DNA of 62,789 bases, counting the filler, from Folioceros fuciformis (Eukaryota), in assembly GCA_049999805.1 (NCBI GenBank). It is 5 parts of 4 records of this genome, joined end to end, with 100 filler letters (N's around TTAATTAATTAA, not from the genome) between each part and the next. Parts side by side here need not be neighbours in the genome. Positions count along the whole stretch, not along the records: positions 1 to 28,555 come from JBNGIO010006246.1; 4 more parts are not named here. One strand, 5' to 3'. Shown piece after piece: positions 1,259 through 50,813 of the stretch. The notes under the pieces are model-generated. The model was not told the DNA's origin. It saw only the letters and a program-made list of their open reading frames with translations, and did not search any database. Each line of letters starts with the position of its first letter. Within the stretch, counting starts at the first letter, position 1. A program made the translations under genes and the position numbers.

Positions 1259-3225
1259 CGTAAGCGAACTGGGTCTTGTAAATCCCTCGTCTCTTTGGGT
1301 TCCGGGGGTAGTGGCTGGGCCCCCGTCTCCCTCTCGCCGTCTTCAGTAGTGTAGGTAGAGAGACTGGTGCCCGGTGCCCCTTGCAGTAGTAGTATTCAGA
1401 AAGCATGACACTCTATGATCTGGATGACTCGTTAATCTATTATTTAGTGCGACCGGTTGCACAGTTGCGTGATATTGAGAAGATGTGGCAGTCGAGAGGC
1501 TCGGTGCCCCCGCTGTAGCATGTGCTCTGTGCGAGGATGCCGGTCGTGCAGCTCCGGTGCACAACACGGTCTTCTTGTTTAACGAGAGATGTTTTGTCCC
1601 TTGCGCCCCTGCTCGTTCACAAGGCTGCTTTTAGAACGGCCTCTCTATCTTGCATTCCAATGCCTGGTCATAGAGGTGAGACAACTTCTGTTCACACTAT
1701 GAACCCACGCCTGCGAACAAATCCGGTAAGCAGATCCAGGAGGAGCACACCGTCTGTCTTGGTAAACTCGGTGCTCACGACGTTGTATTTCCAGGGACAT
1801 GGTTATACATGCATTTCAAATTGTCGGGAGCAGGGGCGGGAGCAGAGGACGTTGATGTTTTACATCACATACATTGAGGAGACTTTTAAGAAGAGGACGT
1901 GCTTCCTTCCTTCCGTCCTTCCTTCCGTCCTTCCTTCCTCGTAACAACGTTGTAAGAACCGCCAAGCCAAAGCCAAATCTCGGTGCATCAGCATCAGTTT
2001 AGTACCTGCCCAAGACTTGAATCACCACGGTCACAATAACTACTCGACATACCAGTAGCAGTAGCAGTGGCAATAGCAGTAGCAGTAGCAGTAGGCCACC
2101 AAGCGGGTAAGGCTCCGCCGACCGTCCTCTGTTCGTTCGCAGTAGCTCCACCCTCGTTACGCGTTACGTCTCTCAAACTTGTGGTATCTACTGCTACTGC
2201 ACTTTGCGCACCACCTGACTGTATTTCAAGCAAAAGCCGCCCGGCTACTGCAGCAATCTTCACAGCAAATGCAATTCCTGTTACAGGGTTCCTTACTGCC
2301 AATTTTCGATTACCCCAATCTCCCTTGGATTGATTTAATCCAGGTTCCAATCGTTGAACATTAAACAGCCGGTACGCAGGTTCCTCTGCCTGTCGGACTT
2401 CGTACTGAACATCAAAAGCCACTGAATTTGACGCTCAGGCTCAGGAAGAGCTCTTTCCAAGGAAGCTGTCTTGGGCATGGACTCGTCTACGAGCGGGATC
2501 AAAGACCCGGACAACAGCTTCATGCCTAAGTGAAACCCGTACAGTGCGTATGTGTCTGGTCCGTACGTACGAGGAGGGTAACCCTTGGCAAGTGATTCAT
2601 TCTAATCTGCCAAGTTCACAACCAGAGCTTTTTTTAGAAGTAGCAATAAAATAAAAAGAGGAGGAGAATTCTAGTTGCGTGTAGAACAAGCAACCAAGAT
2701 ACAACAGCTAAGGACGACATGCGGCCAAGGACTCTAGTTAGGATACAGTTTTTTATAAGCTAAGGAGCAAATAAATGACACAGAATAAAGAACCACCTAT
2801 TTTTCAACCACGAAATGGAAGCCACCAAAGTTAGAAGGATTCTGAATGTTTGTTACAAGACCTAACAAGTACAATGCACTACACTTAGAGCATGTTTTCT
2901 GAACATCTTACTAGTCTATTCTATTATACATGAGAAATAGTTTTATCATCTCTCACTATGCTTCTATTTTATTATATATATTTTTATAAGTTATCATATA
3001 TAAAATAACTTTTACATATTAGTGTAGACTAACACCCCTTGAGTGAGGTGGGGAAACCATGTAATTCAAAGCAAAATTAAGAGGAAGAGTAAGCGACAAA
3101 CACCTGATACTAGCACTAGGCCTCCAAGCAACCTATCCCTCTCTTGTAGTCAATACTCTTGCTCCTACAAGAGCTCTTTATTCCACAATCAAGAGTCAAC
3201 TAGAATGCATAGCAAAAGACTCTTG

Positions 3226-3510
3226 TTGCAAGAGCTCTTAATTCCACAATCAAACATCCTTAGAACAATCAAGTTAGAGAGAACTCTCCATCTCCCATTG
3301 TTGCAAGAGCTCTTAATTCCACAATCAAACGTCCTTAGAACAATCAATTAGAGAGAACTCCCCATCTCTTGTTGTTGCAAGAGCTCTTAATTCCACAATC
3401 AAACGTCCTTAGAACAATCAAGTTAGAGAGAACTCCCCATCTCTTGTTGTTGCAAGAGCTCTTAATTCCACAATCATAGAACAATCAAGTTAGAGAGAAC
3501 TCTCCATCTT
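3226..3510. repeat. Tandem repeat, ~75-bp unit, ~4 copies
   Basis: Unit ttgcaagagctcttaattccacaatcaaacRtccttagaacaatcaagttagagagaactc recurs at ~3227, 3301, 3375 and 3450. Confidence 0.85.
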
Positions 3511-3926
3511 CGCCTAAGTAGGCACCTTTGCCATCTTGCTCCCTCCCTGTAACCTCCTCCATAAGTTACCACTCTTCCCATCACCTGCTCCACAAGAGCT
3601 CTCTCGTAACACACACTTTGGATGCGCACAGCCTAAGCACTCCATGCTCTCAAGGCATGAAGGATGTGTCTGTGTGTCCTTAGCCCAAGGCTAGGTACCC
3701 TTCTATACTCAAGTCCCCTTTTTCTATACTCTTACACTCTAGTTAGGCTCTTAGTAACTACTTAACTTAAACTCCAAGCTACGTCCTACTATCACTCATT
3801 TTCTAGGGCTGTTCATGTATGCTCCTCTATCAAGCTCTCTCATGTGCTTTATCGCCTTGCACTCTTCTTTAGGAGACTTTCTTATGTGCTTCTTAAATAG
3901 ATTTAGTCGCATGCATGTTCCTTTAT

Positions 3927-4262
3927 CAAACTCTCTTGCTTGTTCCTTAAGCAAGCTTAGTCACCATGCACACTTCATTTACAAACTCTCTTGCTTGTTC
4001 CTTAAGCAAGCTTAGTCACCATGCACACTCCGTCTACAAACTCTCTTGCTTGTTCCTTAAGCAAGCTTCGTCACCATGCACACTCAGTTTACAACCTCTC
4101 TTGCTTGCTCCTTAAACAAGCTTTTTCATCAAGCACATTCCGTCACCATGCACACTCAGTTTACAACCTCTCTTGCTTGCTCCTTTTACAACCTCTCTTG
4201 CAACCTCTCTTGCTTGCTCCTTAAACAAGCTTTGTCACCATGCACATTCCATTTACAACCTC
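3927..4262. repeat. Tandem repeat, 55-bp unit, ~5-6 degenerating copies
   Basis: caaactctcttgcttgttccttaagcaagcttagtcaccatgcacac recurs at 3927, 3982, 4037 and 4092, then degenerates. Confidence 0.85.
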
Positions 4263-4604
4263 TATGACAGGTTCCTTGAGAAAGCCTTGAGAAATCTTAG
4301 TTACTAGGCGCACCCTCTTGCATGGTACTAAACAAGTTTTGTTTCAAGTGTTGCTCATGTGAATGGTATAGTGATAGAACAGAACAGCTTAGTTTCAAAA
4401 GCCAATGCTGTTAAAAACCGGCCATGCCCTATCAATGGATAAGTAACATAACTACATATAGTACGCTTAGTTACATATTTCTAGGTGGAAGATTCACAAT
4501 ATGCGAACCAGGTACAAACTGCAATACGCAGTACATATGCGCTGTAGGCAGGCCAGATAGCGGGAGCTGGATATTGCTACTATACAAGTGTCCACGCAAA
4601 TGCG

Positions 4605-10691: not shown

Positions 10692-11497
10692 ATTCAATTT
10701 GTGAACAAGTTGTCATCAACCACTTTAGATGGGTGGGAGAGATTCAATTTGCAAGCAAGTTGTCATCAACCACTTTAGATGGGTGGGAGAGATTCAATTT
10801 GCAAGCAAGTTGTCATCAATCACTCTAGAGTCATCAACCACTCTAGATGGATGGCAAGACCTTGTGATAGCACCAAAGTCCTGCAAGACGAACAACCACT
10901 CTAGATTGTGCAAGCACCAAAGTCTATAAGTATTCTAAGAGGAACAACCACCAAAGTCTAAAAGTATTCTAAGAGGAACAACCACGTCCATAAGTATTCT
11001 AAGAGGAACAACCACTCTAGATTGTGCAAGCACCAAAGTCCATAAGTATTCTAAGACGAACAACCACTCTAGATTGTGCAATTACCAAAGTCCATAAGTA
11101 TTCTACTCTGCAAGACGAATAACCACTCTAGATTGTGCAAGCACCAAAGTCCAATTACCAAAGTCCATAAGTATTCTACTCTGCAAGACAAATAACCACT
11201 CTAGATTGTGCAAGCACCAAAGTCCATAAGTATTCTAGCCCCTGCAAGACGAACAACCACCCTAGATGGATGGCAGAGGGTTGTGCAAACACCAAAGTCC
11301 ATAAGTTGTGCAAACACCAAAGTCTGTGCAAACACCAAAGTCCATAAGTATTCTACCCTGCAATAACAATAACCACTCTACATGGGTGGCCAAAGTCCAT
11401 AAGTATTCTAGCCTACAAGACGAACAACCGATCTAGATGGATGGCAGAGGGTTGTGCAAGCACCGAAGTCCATGAGTATTCTACCTTGCAAGACGAA
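10692..11497. repeat. Compound tandem/minisatellite array (50-bp unit followed by ~50-75-bp units)
   Basis: caagttgtcatcaaccactttagatgggtgggagagattcaatttg x2-3, then many copies of aaccactctagattgtgcaagcaccaaagtccataagtattcta. Confidence 0.8.
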
Positions 11498-12401: not shown

Positions 12402-12722
12402 TATGTTTTAAGATTCGTCCCGATTGACAGTGTTTTAAGATTCGTCCCGATTGACAATGTTTTAAGATTCGTCCCGATTGACAGTGTTTTAAGATTTGTC
12501 CCGATTGACACAGTGTTGTAGGATTTGTCCCGATTGACAGTGTTTTAAGATTCGTCCCGATTGACACTCTGTTTTAGGATTCGTCTTGATTGACAGTGTT
12601 TCAAGATTCGTCCCGATTGACACAGTGTTGTAGGATTCGCCCCGATTGACATGGCTGTAAGTGAGGGCTCCCGATTGACACAAGTGTTGTAGGATTCGTT
12701 CCGATTGATAGTGTTTTAAGAT
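12402..12722. repeat. ~28-30-bp tandem array (core GATTCGTCCCGATTGAC), left part; interrupted by the Gypsy insertion
   Basis: tgttttaagattcgtcccgattgaca repeated ~10 times head-to-tail; the array resumes at 22334. Confidence 0.85.
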
Positions 12723-12833
12723 TGTCGTGCTCCCAGCATCAACTGTTGTGAGCACTTCAGTTCAGTCCATCAGCTGCAAGGCTAATGTCTTGTGCACTAA
12801 GAAAAAGAGAACAAAAAGATTGTCCATGCCTTC
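12723..12833 (-). repeat. Terminal repeat segment B2 (111 bp), 3' end of element
   Basis: Near-identical (4 substitutions) to 13306-13416. Confidence 0.9.
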
Positions 12834-13303
12834 AAGATGTTAGGCTGCTCATATGCGCCATAGCTCACTCCGTGTCGTAAAGCTGCGAAAAGGGGACTGC
12901 CCTCGTCGGGCTGCCCAGAGTTGGTAAGTCACTAGCGGGATGCCACCATCTCCCTCACACCGTCAATCTGCACCAAATAGCTTGTCCTTTCATAGACGGC
13001 TAGTGAACAACAAAAAAAGGTTTAGGTCTTCCGGTGGTTCCTCTCATGAGCGACTTCGACAATTGCCTTTTTCCTCGCCGTGTTCGATTTCTTTGTTTGG
13101 TGCCCCTCCAAGCCGTTTCCCATGGGCTGTATGAGCCCACGTGCTTCTAGTGGGCAAGTAGCCATGGCTAGTATTTTAGCCATTTACGTAATTTAGGTTG
13201 AGTTAGTTTAGTCACCTATTATCTTATCAACTGAATTCCACTAAACTATCACGTTCACCATGACGCTCTACTATAAGTCCATTTTTGCCACAATTTCACG
13301 ACA
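12834..13303 (-). repeat. LTR segment A2 (470 bp)
   Basis: Same length as 21864-22333, with roughly a dozen substitutions. Confidence 0.9.
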
Positions 13304-13305
13304 GC

Positions 13306-13416
13306 TGTCATGCTCCCGGCATCAGCTATTGTGAGCACTTCAGTTCAGTCCATCAGCTGCAAGGCTAATGTCTTGTGCACTAAGAAAAAGAGAACAAAAA
13401 GATTGTCCATGCCTTC
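13306..13416 (-). repeat. Repeat segment B1 (111 bp), directly after the polypurine tract
   Basis: Copy of 12723-12833; separated from A2 by the dinucleotide GC (13304-13305). Confidence 0.9.
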
Positions 13417-13424
13417 CCCCCCCC
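13417..13424 (-). promoter_or_regulatory. Polypurine tract (G-run) of the Gypsy element
   Basis: C-run on the + strand (G8 in element sense) lies ~40 nt after the integrase/PHD stop and abuts segment B1. Confidence 0.75.
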
Positions 13425-13465
13425 AGCTGATGGATGGGCTGAAAGCATGAAGAGCACGACAAGAG

Positions 13466-14760
13466 CTACACTCCTGGGCTGGTCACACCTGCTGCGTCCG
13501 GTTGGCACTTGGGACAATACCAAAGTTGCTCTGGTACATGGGTAAGTGGTGGCTGTAAGAGGAAAAGGTGGAAACCCCCATTGCAGCCATCACAAAGTAA
13601 CATGAGGTCAGCATCATCTGTGCGTTGACAAACCTGACAAGGGTAGTCTGCTGGTGGAATCCAATCTGTTGTGACAATAGAAGGATCAAGATTGGGCAAG
13701 TGGCAAGGTGCGCAATTCTTGGTGTGGTCAGTGGTGATCCGACCATCTGAGCCTTGCAATACCAGGATGCCATTAGGCTTGACCTCCTGAATCCGTAACA
13801 CATGCCGACTACTAGAAGTGTCCAGGGTATCTGAGGTCTGCCTCTGGAGGTAAACAAAGTCTCCTACCTGGAACTTCCTGAGCTTGGGCCTAAAATTGCC
13901 TCCCCTAGTGTGTGCATAACGAAGGGTATCCCTATGCTGGGCAATGTGCAAGTTAGCCATTGCCATGGGCATGGCCTGTTTGAACAAGGCTGCCCTGTTC
14001 CCTATCACACGTGCCCATGTAGCTGCATCATCCAGCTTGACAACTTCTAGCATTTGTTTAGCTATAGAACTAAGTGGAATTGGTTCTCTGCCAAACAAGA
14101 GGAAGTAAGGGGAAAAATGGGCAAGGGCAGCATGCTTGCTCATGCGGTAGCCCATTGCAATATATGGAAGCATGAGATCCCAATCTGTTTTGGGTTGTCG
14201 GAGACACAGCTTGCGAAGCCCCTTCTTCATAGTCTGGACCATGTGCTCGGCTAAGCCATCAGCCTACGGGTGGTCCCGGCTAGTTCTCCTGTGGTCAATA
14301 AGGGCTGCATCCATTAGATCCTGGAATTCTCCTCGAAACTCAGAACCATGATCTGTGTGTGAGACACTCTGCGCAGCCACCAAACCTACTAAGCACACAT
14401 TGTAGGAAGGCTTGTGAGGTACTCCTAGAGGTCTTGTCTGGCAGGGCCACTACCTCCACCCACTTGCTGAAGTATTCCATCATGATCATCGCATACAGGT
14501 TGCCTCGTGGAGACTACGGGAGCTCACCCATCAGGTCACATGACCATCTGAAGAATAAACCCATGATGGGCAAAGGGTGCAACTCTAGGTGCTGCATGGT
14601 GAAGGAAGCCTTGACACGGTCGCATTGCTCGCAACAGGCTACTCGTTCCTTCACTTGTTCATCCATTCGATTCCAGTAGAAATAGGGAGTCAACAGGTTG
14701 TAGGTGCGTTTGACCCCAAAATGACCCATGTCATCATGCACCCTACTGATGAGGGCAGCA
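13466..14760 (-). pseudogene. Gypsy integrase (HHCC zinc finger, DDE core) with C-terminal PHD finger (13505-13639); stops and a frameshift
   Basis: HDDMGHFG...CCEQC; WSCDLMGELP, EYFSKWVEV, TDHGSEF, DGLAEHMVQTMKKGL, SPYFLLFGR; CQVCQRTDDADLMLLCDGCNGGFHLFLLQPPLTHVPEQLWYCPKC. Confidence 0.9.
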
Positions 14761-15079
14761 CGATCTGCTGGTGGGGGTACCAATCGCTCCACTCTTTGAG
14801 CCTGTTGATGGATGAGGTGTCTGTCCCGCCAACAATACTTGATAGCCCGTTGGTGAACTCGTTCCCTTGTGGCCGCAGTCCAAGTGGGGTCCTCTCTACC
14901 TGTCTGCACATACTGAAGGGTAGCTGGATCCTCCCAAATATCCTTGGAGGATTGCTGAGCTGCACCTAAAGGCACCTGTCCCAAGCAAGTCATGGCCACC
15001 AAAGCCGATACTGCAAGCATTGTGCTGTACTCTTCATCTTGGCGAGCTCCGTTAGTATCCACACAACTACTGTCAGGAT

Positions 15080-16480
15080 TTCGTGACAAGGTATCGGCAT
15101 TCTGGTGCTTCACTCCTGGCCGATGTTCAACCTGGAATTCGTAATCTTGAAGGATCATGGCCCAACGTGCGAGCTTGCCACTGAGCTTAGTGTTGGTCAT
15201 CAGCCACTTGAGTAGTTGATGGTCTGTCACTAGTGTGAACTTCTGACCATATAAATATGGTCTGAAGTGGCACACAGCCCACACAGCAGCGAGGCATTCA
15301 CCCTCGTAGCTGCTATAGTTGGCTTCATCTCAATTGTTGCTACGCGAGGCGTAAGCAACCACACGCTCACAACCTGCTTCATCTTGTTGAGCCAGCACAG
15401 CCCCTAGCCCTAGACTACTCCAATCTGTGTGAACTACAAAGGGCTTATTAAAATTGGGTCTAGCCAACATTGGTGCAACTGTCAACTCCAGCTTTAAGGT
15501 GTCAAAAGCTTGTTGTGCCTGCTCTGCCCATGTCCACTCTATATCCTTGCGCAGCAGATCATTAAGAGGCTTGGCAATCCTGCTGAAATTGGGTATGTAT
15601 ACTCGATAGTAATTGCATAACCCTAGAAATGAACGCAGGGCTGATACGGTGGTCGGTTCCTTAACCTGCATAATTGCCTGAACCTTGGCAGCATGTGGGG
15701 TGACACCATTGGGGACACTTCTGTGACCCAAATACGCCACAATGCTCATGCCAAACTCACACTTGGCTGGGTGGCACGTGAGTTGTGCCTTCCGTAATCT
15801 TACAAACATGGTCTTCCAGGTGTACCAAATGATCCTCGAAGTCCATGCTGTGGACTAGCACATCATCAATGTAGCACATGAGATAGCCGGCTCCAGCTAG
15901 TACTATGTCCATGATGCACTGAAAGGTCACTAGCGCATTCTTGAATCCAAAGGGCATCACTAGCCATTCCCATAGCTGTTGAGAACCATGGAAGGCTGTC
16001 TTCTTGATATCTTCAGCTGCCACTGGGACCTGGTTAAACCCTTGTCGTAGGTCCAGCGTGGAGAAGAACATAGACTGTCCAAGATGGTCAAAGATCTCCT
16101 CTGGTGTCGGCATTGGGTACCGATCCTGGGCAGTTACTGCATTGACAGGCCTATAGTCGCCACACATCCTCTTCTCAGTCCACAAACCTTGGCTGTCCTT
16201 TTTGGGTGGCATCACAATGGCTTCAGTGTAGTCACTATTAGAGGTACGTATTAGGTTTGCCTCATACAGTTCCTTGCATCTTGCATCCACCATGTCCCAT
16301 TCCGTCTTGCTCAACCTATACCGTTGCCTGTATACAGGCTCTTGGGTGGTAAAGTTGATGCGAAAGGTTGTGACATTGCACCTCTTGAGCTCATGCATGG
16401 AAAAGGCAAAACAGTCCCTGTACCTAAGCAGCAAGTTACGAATGCGGTCCTGTTGCTTCAGACTGAAATCTGAGCCCATC
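15080..16480 (-). pseudogene. Gypsy reverse transcriptase and RNase H; frameshift near 15810, stop at 15330
   Basis: RMCGDYRPVN, YPMP, LDLRQGFNQV, MPFGFKNA, YIDDVLVHS, KCEFG...YLGH, LRSFLGLCNYYR, HTDWSSLGLGAVL, TDHQLLKWL. Confidence 0.92.
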
Positions 16481-16739
16481 TTCCACGGGAAATTAACAGT
16501 AGACAGCTTGGGTGTAGCTCCTGGATCCTCCTTTTCTAGCCTTGGCTTGATCAGATGCTGAGTAAACAGTACGTGATGCCAATGCTGCGTACTCCACCCC
16601 CGCAGCATCTAGCCAGAAAGGCAGTTGTGTGTATCCTGGGAATGGGAGGTGAACAGCATCTCCAAGGCAGATGCTAGCAAACAAGCCTGGGAGTAGCATG
16701 GGAGTGATATGAGTGTGCAGCTGAAAGGCAAGGCACAAA

Positions 16740-17685
16740 CTCACCAACCATGTGATGGCATGGAGGTCCATGGCTCGTCCTAGAGTGCCCTTGCGCTGCC
16801 GATTGGTGACAGTAGGGGCCGCTGTACTATGGGTTTGAAAACCCATGAGTCACTCTCGCTCCTCAACTGTTGGTTCTTCCCACCGTTGCGTTTCAGTATT
16901 CAATAATAAGCCAGCTCCTTCACCTCTGTAAGCAAATGAACCCGGAAAGCTGACCAGCGTGGGCAACGTCTGCCTTGGCTGACCTGGAATGTTGGTCTTG
17001 AACCAAGGGGCTTTCTCACTGGCCACCACAGGTCGTGGCCTATGGTAGTTCTCCAATACAGTACAAAGTTGCAGCCCTGGATCCCTGCTAGTGTTCCAGA
17101 GAGCCAAGTCCAACACGGAGACAGGGACCAAATTGGTCCAGTAGTTACAAAGCCTGTGGGCATAGCTACCCACCTGCACAGCATCCATGAGGAATGGTGG
17201 CCCTGCAAAATGTCGCACAATGGCCATATCCTGCTGCACCTATGGCCGGGTATCAAATTGGGCTGGTGTGTTCTCGAGCAGGTATGCACATTGAGGGTTA
17301 CTATCTTGTGCCCATGCCAAGATTTGTTGGAGATCTCTAAACAAACCAGAACGTGGATCTATCAACCCTGCACCTACCCCAGCTTGAGAGAATCCTTGGC
17401 ATTCCCAGCCAGCTATGACCATGTCGAAGGGGCCCAAGGCTTGGATGTGGCCCTGCTGTATATACTGGACGTCCTGAGGTAAGGACGTGAATGTATTAGC
17501 AAGAGCCTCAACTGACAGTTGCTGTGGGAAACGATGTTGTAGACCCTGCAGCCGAAATGCAGCAATTTGCCTGGCAACGGGGTCTTTGTCACAGTAAAGG
17601 TACCTTTGAATGCTCAAACCTGTCAAGAGCAAAGCTTCTAACCCGGTACAAATACCACCAAATAGTTCAACAACTGTAAGGGCTA
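16740..17685 (-). pseudogene. DNMT3-like C5 cytosine DNA methyltransferase domain inside the Gypsy polyprotein (two in-frame stops)
   Basis: Motif I VVELFGGICTGLEAL, motif IV HIQALGPFDMVIAGWECQGFS, motif VI YLLENT, motif VIII region PFLMDAVQVGSYAHRLCNYWTNL, motifs IX-X EERE*LMGFQTHST...RKGTLGRAMDL. All in the same frame as gag and protease. Confidence 0.9.
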
Positions 17686-18049
17686 GCGCAGCCGGTGCCC
17701 ATATGATGACAGTATTGTCCACATAAGATGTGGGACAAGATGATAGAGTCCCGGCTTCCAACAATTGTTGCACCTTGCTGACCTGCTCTTGTGCCTTGGT
17801 CAGCAATGCCTCTGCCTGCTCTGGACAGTCAGGCTGAACTAGAGCTTGCTGCAAACTAGTACACCTCACTTGAGCCTCTGCAACATTGGTCTCTAGATGC
17901 TTGTCCACTTGGTATGTGTCTTGGACAAGCTCCACCACATTGCTACTTTTGATACCAACTACAGCTGGGCTTTTCACCAAAGTGGCTACATCAACCTCCA
18001 CCCAGCCATGCAAATCTAATGGCAGATGTGCAATGCGACGACCTCCTTG

Positions 18050-18420
18050 CTTCCAGTCAGGCCTATAGAAGGCTTGCTCAGTCCAGTTATCCACACCAAC
18101 TCCTGGTGGAAAGAGGAACTCTTGCCCCAACAGCAAATCATAGTTGGTGGCTGTGGTTACCACGTAGGGCAAGGACAATGTCATGGCATCTGGCGTGCCC
18201 GAGTTCAAGGTGATGTCCAGGGGTTGGACTGTCTCACCACAGACTGGTTCAACAGCCCCGGATGCCGTCCTGATGTTCCAGGGCGAGGTATGCAGTGCAT
18301 CACCCTGAAGATGCAACCTTGCAGCTAGAATCTTCCCAAGGAGTACTGGTTGGGCTCCCGTGTCTAGCAACACCACTCTGGGTGCATACCCATTGATTGT
18401 GACGTGCCCACAACGATTGT
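18050..18420 (-). pseudogene. Retroviral-type aspartic protease of the Gypsy element
   Basis: VTING...VLLDTGAQPVLL active-site motif and downstream YDLLLGQEFL. Confidence 0.85.
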
Positions 18421-18640
18421 CAACAACTGCATTGCTGACACGAGCCTGTAGTCGATTGGTGGACTGCACTCGCGGTTGGCTGTCAACTCTCTCAGCTAGT
18501 TGTACAGTGTAAGAGCCATTGCAGTGACTCGGTGCAGTCTGCCCACCTGTAGAGTGTGACATCGCTGTTGGCAGCACCCATTGTGAAGTGTATGCTTTAC
18601 CCAGGCTAGGGTCAGCAGATGCAGCCGTGGCTTCTGCAGT

Positions 18641-20725
18641 TTAAAGAACTTCCTTCAGCCTGCTGGTCGTGATGCCCATGTCCTGCAGTGTGAAAACTGG
18701 CACCTGAGTTAGCTTGGCAGCCAGTTGTGTGATTGTGGTGGTTTGAGGTAAGAGATACACATGCTTTGGTGTTGGTATGCTATGGCCAGGTGTTCTACTC
18801 GTGGGCAGTTGTTCCACACGCAGCGTTGAGTGCTCCTGGCCTCGTTCCGGAATTGCAGACCCCGGTGGCAGTGGGGCAAAGGACTTTGGCATGGTAGCCC
18901 TGGCCCCTCGATTCTTGGTGAGAGGCCCTAAGGCAGTTGTTGTTGTTCCCATGACCACCTGTAAATTCTGCCCCACCCATGTGGCTGGCAACTCCACCTC
19001 CATGCTGCTCTCACCAATTCTGTCAACCATACATACTTGGTGTGCTGGGCCATAATCCTCATCCTCTTGTCCTGGTACCAACTTCACCGCATTGGCTGGT
19101 TTGGAAGAGCCAGTGATGCTGGATAGGTTGGCTGTCAAGACTCCAAGTTGAGCTGTCATGACAGCCATGGAAGCCTCAAGGGAGCTGACCTTGTCAGCAG
19201 TGGCGGCTGCCTTAACCTTGGCCTTGTCACGCTGCTGTTTACTGCGGGACAACCCAACAGCGCTCCTCATTCCTCCTGCTTCCACACTGGCAATTGTGGC
19301 TCCTGCAGACCCTACGGTACCAATCTTCTGGTATCTTCGTTCGGGGTGCTTTTGGAAGCACACAGTAACCACGTGTCCATTCTTCTGGCAATGGGTGCAG
19401 TAGAGTCCCTCCGGAGGACACTTGCATGCAGGGGACATGTGCTCAGGGCTGCCACAATGGTTACACATGGCTACCACTGCTGCCGCTGGAGTTGCTGCTG
19501 AAGCTACCTTAACTGGCTTAGTCTGACCAGCCTTGGCTCCTACACCTGTGTTAGCTGCCCCCTTGCTAGAGAACATGGACTGGTAGTGCGTGAAGGCCTT
19601 GGAATGCCGAGAGGCATAGGCCGAAAAGGCTACCTACTTCTTCTCAACTTCTTCATGCACTTGCTCCAAAGTATACTTGTCCCCATATTTGTCCACCAAG
19701 GATGTAACCAGCTGGAAATGAAACAACGGGTCTCCTTCAAGTGCAGTCAAAAACCTTTGCGCTGCTTCCTGATTTGTTAACATCCTTGTACCTTCCCTCA
19801 ATTTCTGTAGCCTCCTGAAGCACATCTAGACTGTCTCCCCCTTTTTGCGAGCAAAGGCAGCAAGTTCTGCAAATTTCCCTGGGGTCTTCAGTGGGAATGC
19901 CCTCTCCAAAATAGCTAGGAACTCCTCCACTGGGTTCAGGTACTTGCAGGTGTGTAGAAACTCTTGCACACCAGCTGTGGCAGTAGCCCGCTCTGCTAAT
20001 GTCAAATTCACCACCGTTGGAGGTGGTGTGGTGGCGGAGATGGTCTTGGCTACAATCTCCACCTGATGGTCGTTAATGGCTGCTGCCAGTTTGGCATTAT
20101 ATGCCAACTGTAGAGCCGAGTGATGGGCTGGGTTAGGAGTGGCAATTGTGCCCAACAGCTTAGCCTGGTGAGCCTCGTACAAATCCAATGCCTCATCTGC
20201 TAAGTAGCTGGACAACTGTTCAAACATGTACTGGTGGTTGTAGGCAGCACCATGTTTGAACTTCACCCTGCTGATGACTGCATTGATGAACAAGCGAAAG
20301 TCCCTTAAGGATTGGGTGCTTGGTCTGCCTGAGAAATTCTCAGGCCTAAGCCTTGATGAACCACCCTCCATGGTGTCTGACCCTTTAGACAGGTCACCCT
20401 GGCCTTGCCCTACACCAAGGACAGACCCAGCAAACCCCAGATGTGTTTGCTGTGACCTCACAAATGACTGTTGTGAATAGAGAGACCCTTGTTGTTCAGG
20501 TTCCTCGTGACAAACTAGCTGACCCCCTAAATTTGAGCTAGTTGGCACAACAATCTTGCCCAAGTCTAAGAGGGGTGACCAGCTGGGTTGCCCAACAAAT
20601 GTTGCTGGTTCCAAGTCCTCTCTCAAGTCTTCTTCACTTGCAAGTTGGCGTCGTCGAGCTACCCATCTTCTCCTCCGCTGTGCACACTCCGGTGATGCCC
20701 TAATAGGAGTGTCTCGACTCCTCAA
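18641..20725 (-). pseudogene. Gypsy gag with two CCHC zinc knuckles; in-frame stops at 19826, 19634 and 18641
   Basis: RPENFSG...YLADEALDLYE capsid-like segment; CNHCGSPEHMSPAC and CTHCQKNGHVVTVC. ORF pieces starting at 20725, 19825, 19576 and 18577 share one frame. Confidence 0.8.
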
Positions 20726-21842
20726 TCGGTAACGTAGGCTCGCCTCTTGCTAATTTGGTTGCATACCCCATGCACCCCTGTTACACCTACAGCTGGTGCT
20801 TGGCAAAAACAGTGAGGTGCTGTGTTGCAAATAACAGCACCGGGCCTGGGGAAGTGACTCTCGCTGGGACGCCACACACTGCTTCAGCCGTACCCACAAT
20901 ACCTTCAGGCTTCTACTGGCTGTTGCTGGCCCCCAAATCAAACCCCTGTTCTCAAAGGCAAAATGAGCCCCTAAACATGTGGTTCCAACAAACCACGCGT
21001 GCCTCTCGACAAATGTCACCAAGAAATGAGGGTTAGCTCCTCCCAAATATCTGATGGTGGCCTCCCTTCGTGCCGCGTTTGGTCGCAACTTATAGCTGCC
21101 CCCCACAGTCTGAATGAGTGTGAGCAAAGCTCAGCTACTCCCTATCCAGATAATCCTAGTTTGGGAAAATCCTACCCCTGGAAAATCTCAATTTCCTAGG
21201 CTTGCTGGGCAGATGTAGCTGTGAAAGAAAGCAAAGAAACACAACTTTCTTGGAGTCATGAGGGGACAAGAAATCTACCCCTCCCCAAAGCATCCATGAT
21301 CAACCATGTCCCTCTTTCTGCAGTGATCAAAATGTTCGCCTCTTCAAGACAAATCTGTTGGTATATAGATTCTAAGGCAGACAAGCGGAATTGCGGCCGT
21401 TGTGTCCTCCTTAAGTTTGGCGTCCACACCCTCAAACCCCAAACCCGAGGCTTAAGTGCGTGAAATGCTGAGCGACTTGCTGGGGCTGCCTCGATGTGGT
21501 CTCTTAGCGGTGCCTTAGCTGCCAGCTCTCCTAAGCCCTGTCTATAGAGCCTTGGATCAACATGTAGTTGCTGCGAGTAGAAAGGTAGTTGCTACAACAC
21601 TGAGCATGCACATTCCAGACTCACGGCTGCTACAAAGGAAGAGAGGGATTCTCCAAGGCTGCTGCCTGAATGCACATGTCTGGCGCGCCCCTAGAGTCCC
21701 TACAAACCCTAAATCCCTAGCAATGCAAAGGGAAAATGACAGACTTCACACAAACGGGTCTGGATGGGTGCTCCACAAATGCTGCCTTGCTGTAGCTGCT
21801 TGGCTGCGCTCTAAGAGGTCCTCGCCCGTGCCCTCATTGCCT

Positions 21843-21863
21843 GAAAAAGGCAGTTGTCGAAGT
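21843..21863 (-). promoter_or_regulatory. Putative self-priming primer-binding site
   Basis: Directly abuts the inner end of the 5' repeat; exact 21-nt reverse complement of 22083-22103; lacks the TGG start of a tRNA PBS. Confidence 0.7.
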
Positions 21864-22333
21864 AAGATGTTAGGCTGCTCACATGCGTCATAGCTCACTC
21901 CGTGTCGTAAAGCTGCGAAAAGGGGACTGCCCTCGTCGGGCTGCCCAGAGTTGGTAAGTCACTAGCGGGATGCCACCATCTTCCTTACACCCTCAATCTG
22001 CACCAAATAGCTCTTCCTTTCATAGACGGCTAGTGAACAACAAAAAAAGGTTTAGGTCTTCCGGTGGTTCCTCTCATGAGCGACTTCGACAACTGCCTTT
22101 TTCCTCGCCGTGTTCGGTTTCTTTGTTTGGTGCCCCTCCAAGCCGTTTCCCATGGGCTGTATGAGCCCACGTGCTTCTAGTGGGCAAGTAGCCATGGCTA
22201 GTATTTTAGCTATTTACGTAATTTAGGTTGAGTTAGTTTAATCACCTATTATCTAATCAACTGAATTCCACTAAACTATCACGTTCACCATGACGCTCTA
22301 CTTTAAGTCCATTTTTGCCACAATTTCACGACA
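21864..22333 (-). repeat. LTR segment A1 (470 bp), 5' end of element
   Basis: Direct repeat of 12834-13303; begins TGTCGTG in element sense. Confidence 0.9.
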
Positions 22334-22465
22334 AGATTCGTCCGGATTGACACGATTGTGAGAGAGGGCTCTCGATTGACACGGCCGTGAGTGAGGGCTC
22401 CCGATTGACACCACTATGAGGGAGGGGTCCTTATTGCCACCGCCATGAGGGCTCCCAATCGACAC
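22334..22465. repeat. Right-hand continuation of the CCCGATTGAC tandem array
   Basis: agattcgtccggattgacac, ctctcgattgacac, ctcccgattgacac: same core as 12402-12722. Confidence 0.75.
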
Positions 22466-28555: not shown

Positions 28556-28655
28556 NNNNNNNNNNNNNNNNNNNNNNNNNNNNNNNNNNNNNNNNNNNNT
28601 TAATTAATTAANNNNNNNNNNNNNNNNNNNNNNNNNNNNNNNNNNNNNNNNNNNN
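28556..28655. other. Artificial contig linker (44N-TTAATTAATTAA-44N)
   Basis: Six-frame-stop spacer, identical at four places in the window. Confidence 0.97.
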
Positions 28656-31600
28656 GGACAGGACGGAAGAGGAAGAAGCCCGAGGCGGAGGATGTTTCCG
28701 GGAGCAGCTTGTTTGAGATTGTGAAGACCAACGGGGAAGCAGTGCAAGAGGCCGCTCGGGAGTGGCTGGTTCGGTACGAGACGGACAGGGATGCTGCTGT
28801 CACCGAGCTGCTCACGATGTTGTTTCAGGCATGCGGATCTAGGTTTGTGATGGAGGATGCTGGGACGGATGTGGATGAGGCTGTGGAGACCATGGTTGCG
28901 CAGGCTAAGATGGGCAATTTGGATGATAGCATCGGATCCAAGAAGGGGGATGTGCGGAATTTTAAGAGCAATCTTGAGGCCTTCTGGGAGGCCCTTGTCC
29001 TTGAGTGCCAGGAAGTGGCTCTTTTCGACCAGTATTTGATGGACAAGGTTATGGATTTCGTTATCGCTATTTCCTGCACTCCGCCCAGGAATTTTCGGCA
29101 TGTGGCAACGCTGGTCGGGCTGCAGCTGGTGAGTGCTTTTGTGACTCTGGCTAACACGCTCTGTCGAGCCCGTGAGACGAAACAGCGGCAGCTGAATGCG
29201 GAGAGGAAGAGGAATAAGGGGGGTCCTTTGTTGGCTGAGGCGCTCGCCAAATCTCTGTCCGAGACTCACGAGAGGATCACGCAGGTGGAGGAGATGATGC
29301 GGAAGATATTCACGGGGCTTTTTATGCATCGGTATCGAGACAAGGATGAAAACATACGGGTGGCTTGTGTCTCGTCTATCGGTTCTTGGATTGCATCCTA
29401 CCCGTCCTTGTTTCTGCAGGAGCTGTATCTGAAGTATCTAGGGTTCCCGCTGAATGACAAGAGGCCCAATGTCCGGAATAGTGCGATTCTGGCTCTGCAG
29501 GCGCTGTATACGGTGGATGCCTACGTTCCTTCTTTGGCCCTCTTCAGTACGCGCTTCTGCAGTCGGATGGTTGAATTGGCCGATGACATCGAAGTTAGTG
29601 TGGCAGTGAATGCGATTGGCTTGTTGAAGCTGTTATTCAAGCACCAACTTGTTCCGGACGAATACTTAGACTCCCTTTTTGACCTGTTGATCGATGACCA
29701 GGCACAGATCCGGCATGCTGTGGGGGACTTGGTCTATGAGCACCTGGTTATTCAGAACCCCAGCTCTGACCCAAAGGCACTTGAGGAGCCTGTGGAAGCC
29801 GAGCTGGATCGAATACTGCAGATACTTGGGGAGTTCTCAGCTGATCCTATTCTTTCGGACTATGTGATCGATGCGTTCTGGGATAAGAGCAAGGCGATGA
29901 AGGACTGGAAGTGTCTACTGTCTATGTTGTTGGATGAGAAGCCAAGGATTGAGCTGGCAGATGGGGACGCCACAAACCTCATCAGAGTGCTTTTGGCGTC
30001 AGCTAAAAAGTCTGTGGGAGAAAAGATCGTTCCTTCAGTGGAGGTGCGGACAACTGATCATCGGAAGTCGGCAATGAACAAGGCTCAGAAGGAGGCCTTG
30101 GAGGCTGCCAAGGCTGAGATGACTTCTGCTTTGATGAAGGCCTTCCCGAAGCTGCTTAGGAAGTTTCTTGTGGACCGAGGCAAGGTGGCGGCCATAGCGG
30201 AGGTTCTGTTGTACATGGATCTTCAGTTGTTCTCATTGAAGCGCAAGGAGCAGGAGTATACATCTGCGTTGCACTTGTTGAAGGATGCTTTCCTGAAACA
30301 TGGAGATGAGGAAACGCTTAGAGCTTGCATCAAGGCTCTGTCCTTCGCGCTCACCGATAGCCACGCTGACTTGCTGGATACTGCCCAGGTGGTCGTTAGC
30401 GAGACCGTGGATGACCTCACGGTGAAGCTGAGGCATGCCATCAGTCACGCAGGAGAAACAGAGGATGAGTATTCCCTGATAGCAAATTTGAGAAGGATGC
30501 ATCATATGCTGTTGGCAGTGCCTGTGACCAACGAGAGTCTGTTCACAGAAATGCTGGGGTTGATCAAGGACTTCAACTACTTGGATGACGAGGTTATCAG
30601 GCTGGTGTTATTGAACATGTTTCTGCAAGTTGCTTGGTTACTGAAGTCCGTTGATGTCGACCGTCCTGACGAGTCGACTATCGAGGCCTTGATAGTCAGG
30701 AGGAGTAGCTTGCTGGAACAGCTGCGCTGTTTTGGTGACAGCGTGTACGACAGTTGGGAAAATGGAAGTCCCAGGAGCCCTCTGAGCAGCACCATATGCG
30801 TCATCCTGTCCGACGTGTGGAGCTTATTTTCTGCGGAGAAGCTGGCGCCTACTAGACTGCATAAACTGGGAATCTCTCCTGATGATGATTTGCTGCGCCA
30901 CTTTTGGAATCTCTGTGAGCACAAGCTTTTTGCCAATGATGACGCTGAGGAAGCAGCTGAAGAGCACAGCGAGTACTTGGACGAGAAGGTAGTGGTTATG
31001 TCTGCAGCAGCTAAGCTGGTGGCTAACAGGTTGATTCCCACGGACTTTCTGGGCCCGGAAATTGTGTCCCATCTGGTGCTGCATGACAATATTGTGTCCG
31101 AGACGGTGAGGCAGTTGGTGGTGTCCCTGAGGGAACAGGAGACTCCCGAGAACGTATCTCACCTTTACCTGGAAGCAATGAAGAGAGCTCACCGGCGGTT
31201 TCTGGACGATTCTGACGACAGCTGGTCCACCAAGGATTCATACAACACCTGCAAGGAACTGGCACTCCGGTTGAGCGCGACTCTCAAACGGACGGCCAAG
31301 GCCACCATCCTCAAGATTGTCAAGGGAGGCATCAAGCACGCGTTTGTGGAATCTCCCAAGCAGCTCACGTTCCTGGAGGTCGGAGTGCTACAATTTGCAG
31401 CCAAGCTCACGTCTGCGGACCTGCGCCCCATCTACGACCTGATGGTCTCGAGGATGCAAGGCATCAACACCGACGAAGACCCCAGCGCCTGGCGCCCATG
31501 TCTCGTCTTCCTGCAGTACCTGAAGGAGAAGTGCTCCATCAGCGACGTCTCCGCCGACAAGGGCAGCGGGAAGCGAGGCAGGCGCAGGGCGGCAGCCATC

Positions 31601-32269
31601 AAAGGAAAGAAACTCTTCGATGGCCAGGACACGTCTGAGGAAGACAATGCCGATCCCATCTCCAGCGCCTCCGGGGAGGCCGACGAGGAAGAGGAGGAGG
31701 AGGACGAGGAGCGCGTCGTGCTGGCCAACTTGAAGACCGCCCGCACTGCTCGCCAACGCGCAGTGAAGGCCAAAACGAGCAACAAGGCAGCCGCAACTGC
31801 AACCGCGGCTACGTCTACTACCCCATCCACGAGCGAAGCCGACCACCAGCAGAGATCCGACAATCCTGTATCCCACACAAGAAATGACTTCGCCAATACT
31901 GCAACAGAGGAACAGCTTCCTCGAGGCTCCGCCGCTGCATATCAAGAACAGGACCAGACTGTTAGCCTCCAGGAGGAGCCGTCCTCGAATGGCGACCAAT
32001 CGGTCGACGCCCTCTCTCCTGTTTCATCAGGGCACGCTCATCAGCGACCCGGCACGTGGACTGAAGAGCGGCTCCCTGGTAGGTATGCCCGGAGGCGAAC
32101 CCGGAGCCGCGAAGACGACGACGGAGCATCCCCTGCTGATGATGTTTCTGGTGGACAAGAAACGTCCCTCTTGAAACAAACCTCCTCTACGGAAGAAGCT
32201 GATCGTGGGAAGAGCATATCTTCTGGGAAAGAAGGGTCTCCTCCTGCCAGCATGTCCGCTGGAGACTAG
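28656..32269 (+). CDS. SCC3: Cohesin subunit SCC3 / stromalin (STAG), intronless, 5'-partial
   Basis: Single ORF of >1180 codons with STAG/SCD motifs: LFDQYLMD, PRNFRHVATLVGLQL, FMHRYRD...IR..C...IGSWI..YP..FL...YLKYLG..LNDK, RMVELADD; acidic tail. Confidence 0.95.
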
Positions 32270-32431: not shown

Positions 32432-34168
32432 TCATTGCCAGTAGCATGAGGAAGGGCCTTCAGGGGCGGACCTGGCGAGCGCATTGGAGACCGGGGCAGC
32501 AGCGACCCCTCGTTGAATAAGCAGGCAGCGGAAGAAATGCAGGCGGGGCAAAGCAGCGTCCACACCCGCATCGTCGATGGCATGGCGCGGACTCCACAAT
32601 CTCTCTGCCGCGGCGGCGGCTCGGGGCCAGATAGTTTGCTGCAGATCAGAGGAGTCCACCGTCTCGCCCCACATGCAGACCTCGCCGCCGAGGAGAAGGT
32701 CGGAATCTGACTCCGAAATGTCCAGGGCGGGCTCATTAAGGTAGAAGGCCTGCCATGGCACGTCCAGATGGTCCAGGTACCAGACATCTTGGTTACTCAC
32801 GATGCAGCGGAGCCCGGCCTCGAGCACCCGCGGAGCCAGTCCTCTGGCCCACCAGTTGTGCACGACGGACCGCGGGTGCAGTACCTTAGGGAAGTTGTCG
32901 AACGGCTCCTCCCAGTTCACAGGGTCCCAGCCGAGGGAGGCAGCGATCTCCTGAGCGCGCACCACAAAATGCGCGTACGCCTCCTGCCCTGACATTCCAT
33001 GCCCCCGGAGCCAGGCCCTGACGTGCGGCACCCGCTCCCAACACCGTGTATCCACCTCGTCCCCTCCCAGGTGGAAGAGCTCGAAGGGGAAGAGCTCCCG
33101 GAGATCCGCCAGGATAGCGGCTATGGTGTTGAACGTGCTGTCCTTGCTCACGTCCAGCGGCTCTCGGCAGTTCTCCGAAGGCCAGAGTTCCGGATACCCT
33201 AAACCCCAAGACTGAGCGTGTCCGGGCACATCGAGCTCCGGCATGACGTGGATCCCCCGCGCGGCCGCATATGCCACTACGTCCGTCACGTCCCGCACAG
33301 TATACCTCTCCCGCGGTGTATAGGACCCCCGCCACAGCTCCTTCCGGGAGGGGACCTCTAAGGGGAACGCCTGCTCGTCCACTAGGTGCCAATGTAGGAC
33401 GTTGAGCTTGGAGAAGGCCATCGCGTCCAGCACCTCCTTGATGGCCGGAACTGGCAGGAAATGCCTACCGGTATCGATAAGCAGGCCACGGAATCTGAAC
33501 CGCGGCCAGTCCCGGATCTCCCAGGGAGCCTGCTCGATTTCCACCGCCTTGCTTCTGAAGTTGAAGACGCAGAGCTGGCTCAGGGTTTCCATCCCCCGCA
33601 CCGCACCGTAGACAGTCTCCGCCTCCAAACTGGCCGTCCCATCCCCATCCTCCCCCGGCAACGATAGCCTGTACTCCTCACTCGTATTGAGCCGCAGTCG
33701 CTCGTCCCCCGACCACACCTTCACCACCAGCCTCCGTAGCAAGGGTTTCCCGTCCCAGTGCTCGCTCTCCTCCACATCTCCCGTGTGCTGGAAGATGATG
33801 CCGCGGTACCTCTTCCACGCGTTCTTCACCACATCCGACTCCCCTCCCTGGCCTTCCGCCACCAGCTCCAGGCCGGGATCCACTGTCAGCACGGACTCTC
33901 CCCGCGATACCTCCGCGGGCAACGGCCAGATCTTAACGTCGTAAGATCCGCTGAAGCTGATGCCATCGCTGCGCCGGTCCCCGCCGACTGCCTCGCTTGA
34001 GCCCGGGCCCGAGCCCAGGCGCAAGCGCAGGTGCAGAGCCGGCCAACTCCAGCAATGCCCGCCGGTGGCCTGGGCCAGCAGGAACAGCAGGAACAGCGGC
34101 AGCCTCAACGACTGCCGGGGAGCCCGCCCCGCCATGTTGCACCCTTCGGGAGAGGTCCGTGTGCTCAT
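32432..34168 (-). CDS. HEXO: Beta-hexosaminidase (GH20, HEXO1/HEXO3 type), intronless; start may be the ATG at 34135
   Basis: Signal peptide; PRFRFRGLLIDTGRHF, KLNVLHWH, PELDVPGHA, catalytic FHLGGDEV, GGEVCMWGE, IWPRAAAAAERLWS. Confidence 0.95.
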   Translation of the reverse strand: MSTRTSPEGCNMAGRAPRQSLRLPLFLLFLLAQATGGHCWSWPALHLRLRLGSGPGSSEAVGGDRRSDGISFSGSYDVKIWPLPAEVSRGESVLTVDPGLELVAEGQGGESDVVKNAWKRYRGIIFQHTGDVEESEHWDGKPLLRRLVVKVWSGDERLRLNTSEEYRLSLPGEDGDGTASLEAETVYGAVRGMETLSQLCVFNFRSKAVEIEQAPWEIRDWPRFRFRGLLIDTGRHFLPVPAIKEVLDAMAFSKLNVLHWHLVDEQAFPLEVPSRKELWRGSYTPRERYTVRDVTDVVAYAAARGIHVMPELDVPGHAQSWGLGYPELWPSENCREPLDVSKDSTFNTIAAILADLRELFPFELFHLGGDEVDTRCWERVPHVRAWLRGHGMSGQEAYAHFVVRAQEIAASLGWDPVNWEEPFDNFPKVLHPRSVVHNWWARGLAPRVLEAGLRCIVSNQDVWYLDHLDVPWQAFYLNEPALDISESDSDLLLGGEVCMWGETVDSSDLQQTIWPRAAAAAERLWSPRHAIDDAGVDAALPRLHFFRCLLIQRGVAAAPVSNALARSAPEGPSSCYWQ

Positions 34169-34569
34169 CCGATCTCCTCATATCCGAGCTTTACAGAGAG
34201 GTGGCAGTAGTACACAGACCTAATCCCAGCTTTTGATTGAGTGTCTGTTTCCACGGGAGAAGCATATGAGTCAAATGAAAACAGACTACTTCTGACTGCC
34301 GGCAACGGGCGAGAACCGGCGGTGGTGTAACAGTTCCGCGGACAACCCCGGGCCCCACAGTGTGAAATGGAAACAGGTCGGCCATGGTTCGCAGACACCC
34401 CGGATAACATGTATATACTTGCTGCCTGGAATCGTCATGGCTTGCCTTCGTATATATCCATGGCCGCGGCAAGCACGATGCAGGAGCGCCGCGAGCAACC
34501 GGAGCAGGAGGACTTCCAGTTGCTCCAGGAGCACAAGCCGATTGTAGCCGCTTTGCCTTCTCCATTGCC

Positions 34570-50637: not shown

Positions 50638-50813
50638 TGTTAGTGAGTATAGAGTTAGGTATACTCATAGTCTTATTTAAATACATTTTCAGACATTAGG
50701 GTTAGTAGTAGAGACGGTTATTTATAATAACCGTCACCAGGAGTCACATTCACGTGACGCCGCTGTAAACGCGTCATGCAATACAAGCTTGCTAAGCGCA
50801 TCCATCGTTGAGA
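50638..50813 (+). repeat. Short Copia LTR (~175 bp) flanked by PPT and tRNA-Met PBS
   Basis: Preceded by gtgggag, starts TGTTAG, followed by TGGTATCAGAGC at 50814-50825. Confidence 0.85.

Follow-up and report, generated by a model that had tools for sequence, protein, structure and literature searches.

A Ty3/Gypsy retroelement with a DNMT3-like methylase, a PHD finger and split terminal repeats in a Folioceros fuciformis assembly, and a possible route to its integration

How can a retrotransposon equipped with a DDE integrase come to lie between two unequal ends, i.e., a single repeat on one side and a composite of repeats on the other? This question is raised by a stretch of DNA from the assembly deposited under Folioceros fuciformis (NCBI GenBank GCA_049999805.1). 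The stretch as a whole (hereafter the window) measures 62,789 nucleotides (nt) and joins five parts of four records, with 100 filler letters between each part and the next, positions 1 to 28,555 coming from JBNGIO010006246.1. All positions given below are window coordinates, while the sense of the element under study is that of the minus strand. From 22333 to 12723, the window holds a single Ty3/Gypsy element, which encodes, in this order, gag, an aspartyl protease (PR), a cytosine methyltransferase (DNMT), a reverse transcriptase (RT), an RNase H (RH), an integrase (INT) and a PHD finger. We regard it as very probably a mutated copy, no longer active, from a multi-copy family that belongs to the “Gypsy-DNMT3” kind, with the architecture gag-PR-DNMT3-like methylase-RT-RNase H-DDE integrase-PHD. 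More tentatively, its anatomy suggests that such elements prime their own reverse transcription and integrate from joined complementary DNA (cDNA).

Repeat searches and direct reading yield the same order in the sense of the element: A1, a 21-nt site, about 8.4 kb of coding sequence, a G-run, B1, the dinucleotide GC (13305-13304), A2 and B2 (Table 1). Rather than two identical full long terminal repeats (LTRs), one per end, the 5' end consists of A only and the 3' end of B-GC-A-B; the relatives described below are built alike, so that the window element and its relatives both display split direct repeats of the form A1..B1-A2-B2. The copies of B are identical at 107 of 111 positions. A begins with TGTCGTG and B2 finishes with CACGACA, which makes a 7-nt inverted pair with TG..CA ends, while the A2|B2 joint sets an exact U5 end and an exact U3 start side by side. 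The original prediction had described this architecture, together with the A...B-GC-A-B terminal layout, intact ends, a target duplication and a primer site complementary to something other than a transfer RNA (tRNA), and all of these are present according to the repeat search, Pfam and direct reading.

The insertion target is an array of a 27-29 bp satellite (core CGATTGACA...TAAGATTCGTCC on the plus strand), which occupies 12402-12722 and 22334-22465, and of which a variant unit with GAGGGCTCCCGATTGACAC occurs on either side of the element. The motif ATCT borders both ends. Because the satellite unit is back in phase once the element and one ATCT are taken out, this target duplication is real and amounts to 4 bp, the adjoining T and A making its borders ambiguous. 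A joint across the element, from 12426 to 22394, was considered as an empty site and not accepted; it lies in the satellite and has sides of 21 nt.

Table 1. Features of the element and of its target site (window coordinates)
Feature	Position	Strand	Evidence or reading
A1, 5' terminal repeat, 470 nt, starting TGTCGTG	21864..22333	-	457/470 positions shared with A2; other contigs end at 22333/22335
Inner A1 segment complementary to the primer site	22083..22103	-	21 nt, 100%; proposed RNA 5' end and self-primer
Primer-binding-like site directly 3' of A1	21843..21863	-	Complement to A1
Gag region, two CCHC zinc knuckles, by position	18641..20749	-	Translation; stops 19826, 19634
Aspartyl protease domain	18113..18403	-	PF13975 2e-7, residues 80-176 of ORF 18640..17240
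DNMT3-like C5 cytosine methyltransferase domain (putative)	16493..17701	-	FGG, (E)CQ, EN(T) motifs; stops 17240, 16850
Reverse transcriptase	15757..16608	-	RVT_1 1.6e-18; frame not that of DNMT
RNase H	15141..15854	-	RT_RNaseH 2.5e-21, RT_RNaseH_2 5.6e-20; stop 15330
Integrase: H2C2 zinc finger, then DDE core	14100..14777	-	Frame change near 14354 splits core
PHD finger, C-terminal end of integrase ORF	13505..13639	-	PHD 8.6e-11; one Cys position is Leu
G-run directly upstream of B1	13417..13424	-	Proposed polypurine tract (plus-strand primer)
B1, internal copy of the 111-nt repeat	13306..13416	-	Proposed U3 start
B1-GC-A2 junction, CATGACA-GC-TGTCGTG	13296..13311	-	Proposed integrase cutting site
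A2, second 470-nt copy	12834..13303	-	Repeat search
B2, terminal 111-nt copy, ending CACGACA	12723..12833	-	Other contigs break off at 12723
Target duplication ATCT, right copy	12719..12722	-	Direct reading
Target duplication ATCT, left copy	22334..22337	-	Direct reading

Comparison within the same organism was based on contigs from public sequencing runs (X1 and X2, both DNA, X3, from another study, and X7), at 90-100% likeness. In this range, 400 contigs of X1 and 334 of X2 fall on the stretch, and contigs with unlike flanks stop exactly at 12723 (X1) and at 22333/22335 (X7, X2). One contig of X3 (9251 nt) spans 13012..22066, including the internal-B1-GC-A2 succession, with about 3% differences. 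The element is thus neither a one-off nor a misassembly, and the chimera or element with ordinary LTRs that the original prediction had named as its own possible undoing is not what the same-organism copies and the related family reveal, since they keep both the DNMT and the split repeats. These copies also bear on the B1-GC-A2 junction, where the palindrome of the window is imperfect because B1 has undergone a C>T change at 13310: a base other than that of the window is found there in 241.5 of 261.1 (X1), 188.2 of 193.9 (X2) and 17.5 of 17.5 (X3), contig depth not being taken as copy number. With the majority base, C, the junction becomes a perfect 16-nt palindrome, CACGACA-GC-TGTCGTG. Perfect palindromes of 16 nt number 237 in the window, a count that is uninformative, as simple repeats are suspected.

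At the level of coding content, Pfam scans of the open reading frames (ORFs) of the window recover the protease, RVT_1, RNase H and PHD (Table 1), as well as Integrase_H2C2 (2.6e-17), in the order PR-RT-RNase H-integrase of a Gypsy pol with a Ty3-like RT. The DNA_methylase match is weak (1.4e-5), yet at 25.1 bits it exceeds the curated cut-off of 22. The integrase core (rve) of the window is detected in a shifted frame only (2.8e-5) and, with 24.7 bits, falls below the cut-off of 32.6, its D..D..E context being found in shifted frames; in one relative, the locus L003, rve reaches 48.5 bits. An H2C2 and DDE integrase, TG..CA ends and a short target duplication are therefore found together. No Pfam family was matched by the gag ORFs. 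The scans yielded no chromodomain, the place of which is occupied by the PHD finger, and no tyrosine recombinase family either in the window ORFs or in L003.

The window copy is dead, as it contains in-frame stops at 19826, 19634, 17240, 16850 and 15330, plus three frame changes, and one cysteine position of its PHD finger is a leucine. One more stop, between gag and pol (18641), could be an original feature of the element. X1 contigs differ from the window at 291 places, at 137 of which the window has A or T and the contigs G or C, a pattern that we take to be decay by deamination of methylated cytosines.

A profile built from 11 DNMT domains of the family finds DNMT3A, DNMT3C and DNMT3B as its best matches (4.8e-23 for DNMT3A, with a range of 4.8e-23 to 4e-20), whereas HhaI (1e-9), DRM2 (7e-8) and likewise DNMT2 are far weaker. 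Invariant in the 11 sequences are F14, G16, C101, Q102, E143 and N144 (motif I FGG, catalytic CQ and motif VI EN), and the motifs follow the non-rearranged order I-IV-VI-VIII-IX-X. Judged by this affinity, the methylase is DNMT3-like, i.e., a Dnmt3-type, non-rearranged C5-methylase within a Gypsy pol. The RT-RH part of L003 is nearest to Ty3 (4ol8, 4.7e-62) and the integrase to Ty3 and PFV, while the PHD finger is nearest to those of KDM5D/Lid (1.1e-14 for the KDM5D PHD), WSTF, BAZ2B and UHRF1, which for the most part recognise histone H3 tails that are unmethylated at K4.

Relatives of the element were sought in two protein searches, which returned 9 and 51 of them. Proteins with PR-DNMT or gag-PR-DNMT occur in Marchantia polymorpha (P0002, 31%) and Calypogeia fissa (P0132, 54% over the DNMT part), with further matches in Closterium, Chlamydomonas eustigma and Haematococcus. 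The order PR-DNMT-RT is common to the window element, P0001, the Marchantia and Calypogeia proteins and L003, while P0003, P0006 and P0008 follow a second order, RT-RH-DNMT-INT-PHD. In P0003, P0004, P0006 and P0008, the DNMT is located between RNase H and integrase, and the C-terminal PHD is accompanied by a long extra C-terminal region, with a G-patch match in P0008.

A larger set was obtained by scanning metagenome contigs with the DNMT alignment: 335 of 429 candidate stretches encode a relative, and 80 loci were kept, at 39-49% amino-acid identity to the window. In L003, PR-DNMT-RT-RNaseH-H2C2-rve-PHD are all encoded in one frame. Self-comparison and probe mapping reveal A..B-A-B at 14 distinct 3' ends. 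Wherever B is followed by A, the junction reads ..CA + 2 nt + TG.. (22 of 22 rows), the two nucleotides being GC, AC, GT or AT, i.e., GC or its transition products, in a CAG/CTG context. A G-run directly precedes B1 in 14 of 17 rows; among the other three, the stretch covered for L009 begins inside the G-run, and L075 and L077 have a different sequence. As in the window, A2|B2 sets an exact A (U5) end beside a B (U3) start. For 13 distinct elements with both ends available, the 4-bp duplication is exact in nine, matches at three of four bases in two and is absent in two (partly by eye). The A2|B2 joint was also considered as a fresh end-joining scar and not retained, for slippage in an ATAT run explains the joint classes equally well; these classes (full, minus 2 nt, minus 3 nt and one with G) are intermingled on a star-like tree, of whose 17 inner branches only one has good support.

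The site following A1 deserves separate treatment. Positions 21863-21843 are the perfect complement of a segment within A1 (Table 1), while the longest match in 200 shuffles reaches 10 nt against the 21 observed. The 261-nt stretch 22103..21843 folds with a minimum free energy of -92.3 kcal/mol and is closed by a 21-bp stem. Self-complementarity begins at the first base after A, opposite an RNA 5' end that is itself a proposed one. The site does not start with TGG and does not resemble a tRNA-complementary site, its 21 nt being complementary to A1, no comparison with a tRNA set having been run. In six of ten loci of the relatives, a run of 11-13 nt that begins at the first, second or third base after A1 can pair with a site within A, at about 115-120 nt from the A end, its sequence being unrelated to that of the window; in a seventh (L070), an 11-nt match starts 7 nt after A1.

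From this anatomy, we propose that the working LTR would be B-GC-A, and neither A nor A-B. Since a G-run, the putative polypurine tract, stands directly before B1, plus-strand DNA would start at B, and since the primer site directly follows A1, minus-strand DNA would start at the end of A; together, these two starts imply that the duplicated unit would be B-GC-A. The RNA would begin inside A1 near 22103, and its first 21 nt would fold back on the primer site to prime reverse transcription, as in Tf1/sushi elements. The usual strand transfers would then produce a linear cDNA, (B-GC-A)-internal-(B-GC-A), with tips that are neither TG..CA nor inverted repeats. Joining of the cDNA ends, in a 2-LTR circle or an equivalent head-to-tail joint, would create the exact A|B joint, after which the DDE integrase would open the molecule at the CA-GC-TG palindrome of the left LTR and insert it with a 4-bp duplication, leaving A-internal-B-GC-A-B. 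The role of opening and inserting enzyme is assigned to the DDE integrase because of the TG..CA termini and the 4-bp duplication. B2 would be a by-product of integration; in the next round, A1, which would correspond to R-U5 and to the distal portion of U3 in the working LTR, would give the promoter and R-U5, and B1-GC-A2 would give U3-R. Chromatin is the probable substrate of the two accessory domains, at the time of integration or later. The PHD finger would direct insertion to silent chromatin unmethylated at H3K4, such as the satellite here (a single data point), and the DNMT3-like domain would add methyl groups to the newly inserted copy or to the DNA around it. The circular or joined intermediate already put forward in the original prediction fits the topology. 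Two further suggestions of that prediction, methylation by the element of its own cDNA and a choice of targets by histone marks, are speculative. We hold the mechanism itself (B-GC-A LTR, self-priming, joined cDNA and palindrome cleavage) tentatively, the balance leaning slightly against it, and consider the explanation as a whole to be evenly poised between right and wrong.

Several points weigh against this reading. The RNA start, fold-back priming, cDNA joining and palindrome cleavage are all deduced from topology. A circle would contain two identical palindromes, so that random cutting should give the mirror layout, A-B-A-internal-B, half of the time; this layout is found in none of 33 informative rows (24 distinct insertions, three rows without upstream sequence having been dropped), and a circle model consequently needs a directional bias that is unexplained. 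Moreover, eight or nine distinct relatives end as A-internal-B|flank (loci L002, L011, L037, L040, L041, L056, L074 and L080), with the 4-bp duplication in three of the four that have both ends; these may have arisen by deletion between B1 and B2, or else come directly from another pathway. Regarding priming, the best match in the remaining three of the ten loci is 7-8 nt long and located at the A1 end in L051 only, while the complements of the other relatives are short (11-13 nt), and each of them taken singly is weak because shuffles of their A/T-rich sequence reach 10-14 nt. Regarding the domains, motif IV reads ECQ, not PCQ, in most members, and the suggested function of the PHD draws on likeness to other PHD fingers. 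Finally, that X3 represents RNA is a guess only, and its contig serves here solely as an independent assembly.

The main rival, which we consider unlikely, keeps the same B-GC-A LTR and dispenses with a covalent circle. The extra terminal B would be added on linear cDNA, e.g., by a jump of the polymerase from the right end of a cDNA to the left end, either of that molecule or of a second one, and the integrase would use the palindrome nearest each end, so that plain cDNA would give A-internal-B and extended cDNA A-internal-B-GC-A-B. This scenario explains why the mirror product is missing and why A-internal-B copies flanked by 4-bp duplications are frequent, and DIRS-1 reportedly amplifies via linear single-stranded cDNA. 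The A-internal-B copies are, however, equally explained by deletion between B1 and B2, and an end-to-end jump without homology is not known to be a regular step in the replication of LTR elements.

For integration from joined cDNA, the proposed cleavage step has counterparts among retroviruses. Cleavage of a palindromic LTR-LTR junction is reportedly performed by HIV-1 integrase. It has been described for the PFV integrase, which cuts the internal CA..TG palindrome of 2-LTR circles into two processed ends and thereby offers a precedent for palindrome cleavage by a DDE enzyme (PMC1180852). In retroviruses, the palindrome is made by the joining of LTR ends, whereas in the window element it is encoded in each LTR and the A|B joint is non-palindromic.

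Self-priming faces a rival of its own, in which the 21-nt complement would be an RNA structure (serving packaging, dimerisation or translation control) and priming would be ensured by an unrecognised cellular RNA. The start of the transcript is indeed a proposed one, and the short complements of the relatives resemble those of shuffles in length. Conversely, in two families whose sequences are unrelated, the complement adjoins the end of A, the very place required of a primer site, and the site has no TGG start; we thus deem this alternative quite unlikely. Tf1/sushi elements are known to self-prime, and the complement of Tf1 has 11 nt. The window complement is longer than that of Tf1 (21 nt), and the window element lacks a chromodomain match, having a PHD instead. 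The likeness to Tf1, sushi and Tcn1 elements lies in a primer site complementary to the own 5' region and not to a tRNA, and self-priming has been predicted for the plant Tcn1 (mosses and club-mosses) and TAR elements, as stated in excerpts of the REXdb survey (PMC6317226), which likewise speaks against a complement without a priming role.

As for the recombination machinery, elements with split direct repeats are usually explained by a joined or circular intermediate. The layout A1..B1-A2-B2, which the window element shares, is the hallmark of PAT, Ngaro and Viper, in which the internal pair likewise lies downstream of the enzyme-coding part (PMC4157794, excerpts). A cycle like that of Ngaro or PAT, in which circular cDNA would be recombined by a recombinase acting in trans and the DDE integrase would have no role in insertion, is nevertheless very improbable: unlike those elements, the window element has a Ty3-type RT, no recombinase domain appears in the Pfam scans mentioned above, the H2C2 and DDE integrase is conserved, and TG..CA ends with 4-bp duplications are DDE signatures. 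Least credible of all is an ordinary A-B LTR rearranged after insertion (5' B lost and B-GC gained before the 3' LTR), or else an artefact of the window assembly, for, although A-B has canonical TG..CA ends and the 7-nt inverted repeat, the layout recurs at the 14 distinct 3' ends of the related family and in the X3 contig from a different study, both termini are common to other copies, the G-run precedes B1 and not A2, and no row among the 80 loci has A-B on the 5' side.

How much of this is new? The original prediction had proposed an undescribed retrotransposon system, a claim that goes too far. KnitGypsy-Dnmt3 of Klebsormidium nitens has a Dnmt3 domain in a Gypsy pol, under purifying selection (de Mendoza et al. 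2018, PMC5890265), and the legend of Figure 4c in that paper likens the structure of its repeats to that of a DIRS element. Mention of “streptophytes (Gypsy-DNMT3)” is made in a preprint of 2026 (10.64898/2026.05.21.726589). KnitGypsy-Dnmt3 and the window element are alike in the unrearranged Dnmt3-type methylase inside a Gypsy pol, the former with a host in the streptophyte lineage, and in repeats that are DIRS-like and not plain LTRs (on the Klebsormidium side by the wording of the legend only), this comparison being one of published description and not of sequence. The window element is consequently a member or a variant of the published Gypsy-DNMT3 kind, and not an undescribed system. No Klebsormidium protein figures among the 9 and 51 matches of our protein searches.

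What goes beyond the 2018 report appears to be the B-GC-A working LTR, the internal palindromic integrase site, the precise joining of cDNA ends, self-priming and the integrase-fused PHD, along with a reach of the family that appears to extend into liverwort and chlorophyte records. The main text of PMC5890265 contains neither PHD nor chromodomain nor “split direct”, and its section on KnitGypsy-Dnmt3 nothing on priming, while its figures or supplements may hold details that reduce this novelty. In the literature searched, no PHD finger, self-priming site or palindromic internal integrase site is described in such an element, and, the 2018 paper and the 2026 preprint aside, no further DNMT-bearing or split-repeat Gypsy. 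PHD and methyltransferase do not occur in the consulted text of the REXdb survey (PMC6317226), while PHD is given as a common accessory domain of C. reinhardtii transposons in excerpts of PMC8557442. The fusion of a chromatin-reader module to the C-terminus of the integrase recalls the chromoviruses; in place of their chromodomain, the window element has a KDM5/WSTF/BAZ2/UHRF1-type PHD as its reader, alongside a DNMT3-like domain.

That the host is a land plant, as the original prediction assumed, is not established. A GH20 beta-hexosaminidase of 581 amino acids (aa; 32432-34177, minus strand) shares only 49-59% identity with each of the named land-plant proteins among the 120 matches listed, liverworts included, and 69% with one unnamed protein. 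It is encoded by a single uninterrupted ORF, as is a complete SCC3/STAG cohesin subunit of 1221 aa (28604-32269, plus strand), and such uninterrupted ORFs are unusual for streptophyte nuclear genes. Elsewhere in the window, a SAND domain of the ULTRAPETALA1 type (1.1e-13) belongs to an ORF running off the window start (2-667, plus strand), tandem-repeat arrays with units of about 55-75 bp extend over 3223-4293 and 11017-11483, and pieces of Ty1/Copia pol (RVT_2, Pol_BBD and CCHC) are clustered at 49611-54364, 56317-58218 and 60146-62789. In this Copia cluster, a sequence of at least 300 nt is repeated directly, with 100% identity, at 49611 and 53981, the second copy overlapping the RT ORF.

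LTR retrotransposons are thought to integrate linear cDNA by means of the tips of their LTRs, and 2-LTR circles are usually seen as dead ends. With proposed cDNA tips devoid of integrase sites, and with an A|B joint and a CA-GC-TG palindrome both in the genome, this conserved family would offer a natural test case for DDE integration from joined or circular cDNA, which could explain how split direct repeats arose independently of tyrosine recombinases. At its broadest, the finding would point to a widespread green-lineage clade of DDE-integrase elements in which the recognition site has moved from the LTR tips to a palindrome within the LTR, and which would integrate from joined (2-LTR circle-like) cDNA in convergence with the split-repeat elements of tyrosine recombinases, self-prime, and use a DNMT3-like writer and an H3K4me0-type PHD reader to choose silent chromatin and set their own methylation on arrival; we view this wider picture as possible but doubtful. 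In practical terms, LTR finders that expect two equal LTRs will mis-call such elements, and related polyproteins lie unremarked in public annotations of liverworts (Marchantia polymorpha and Calypogeia fissa), of Closterium and of chlorophytes. By combining a putative DNMT3-like writer and a PHD reader with the machinery of integration, such elements add to the Gypsy-DNMT3 report of 2018, and they are relevant to the ways in which transposons influence the methylation systems of plants or conceal themselves in them.

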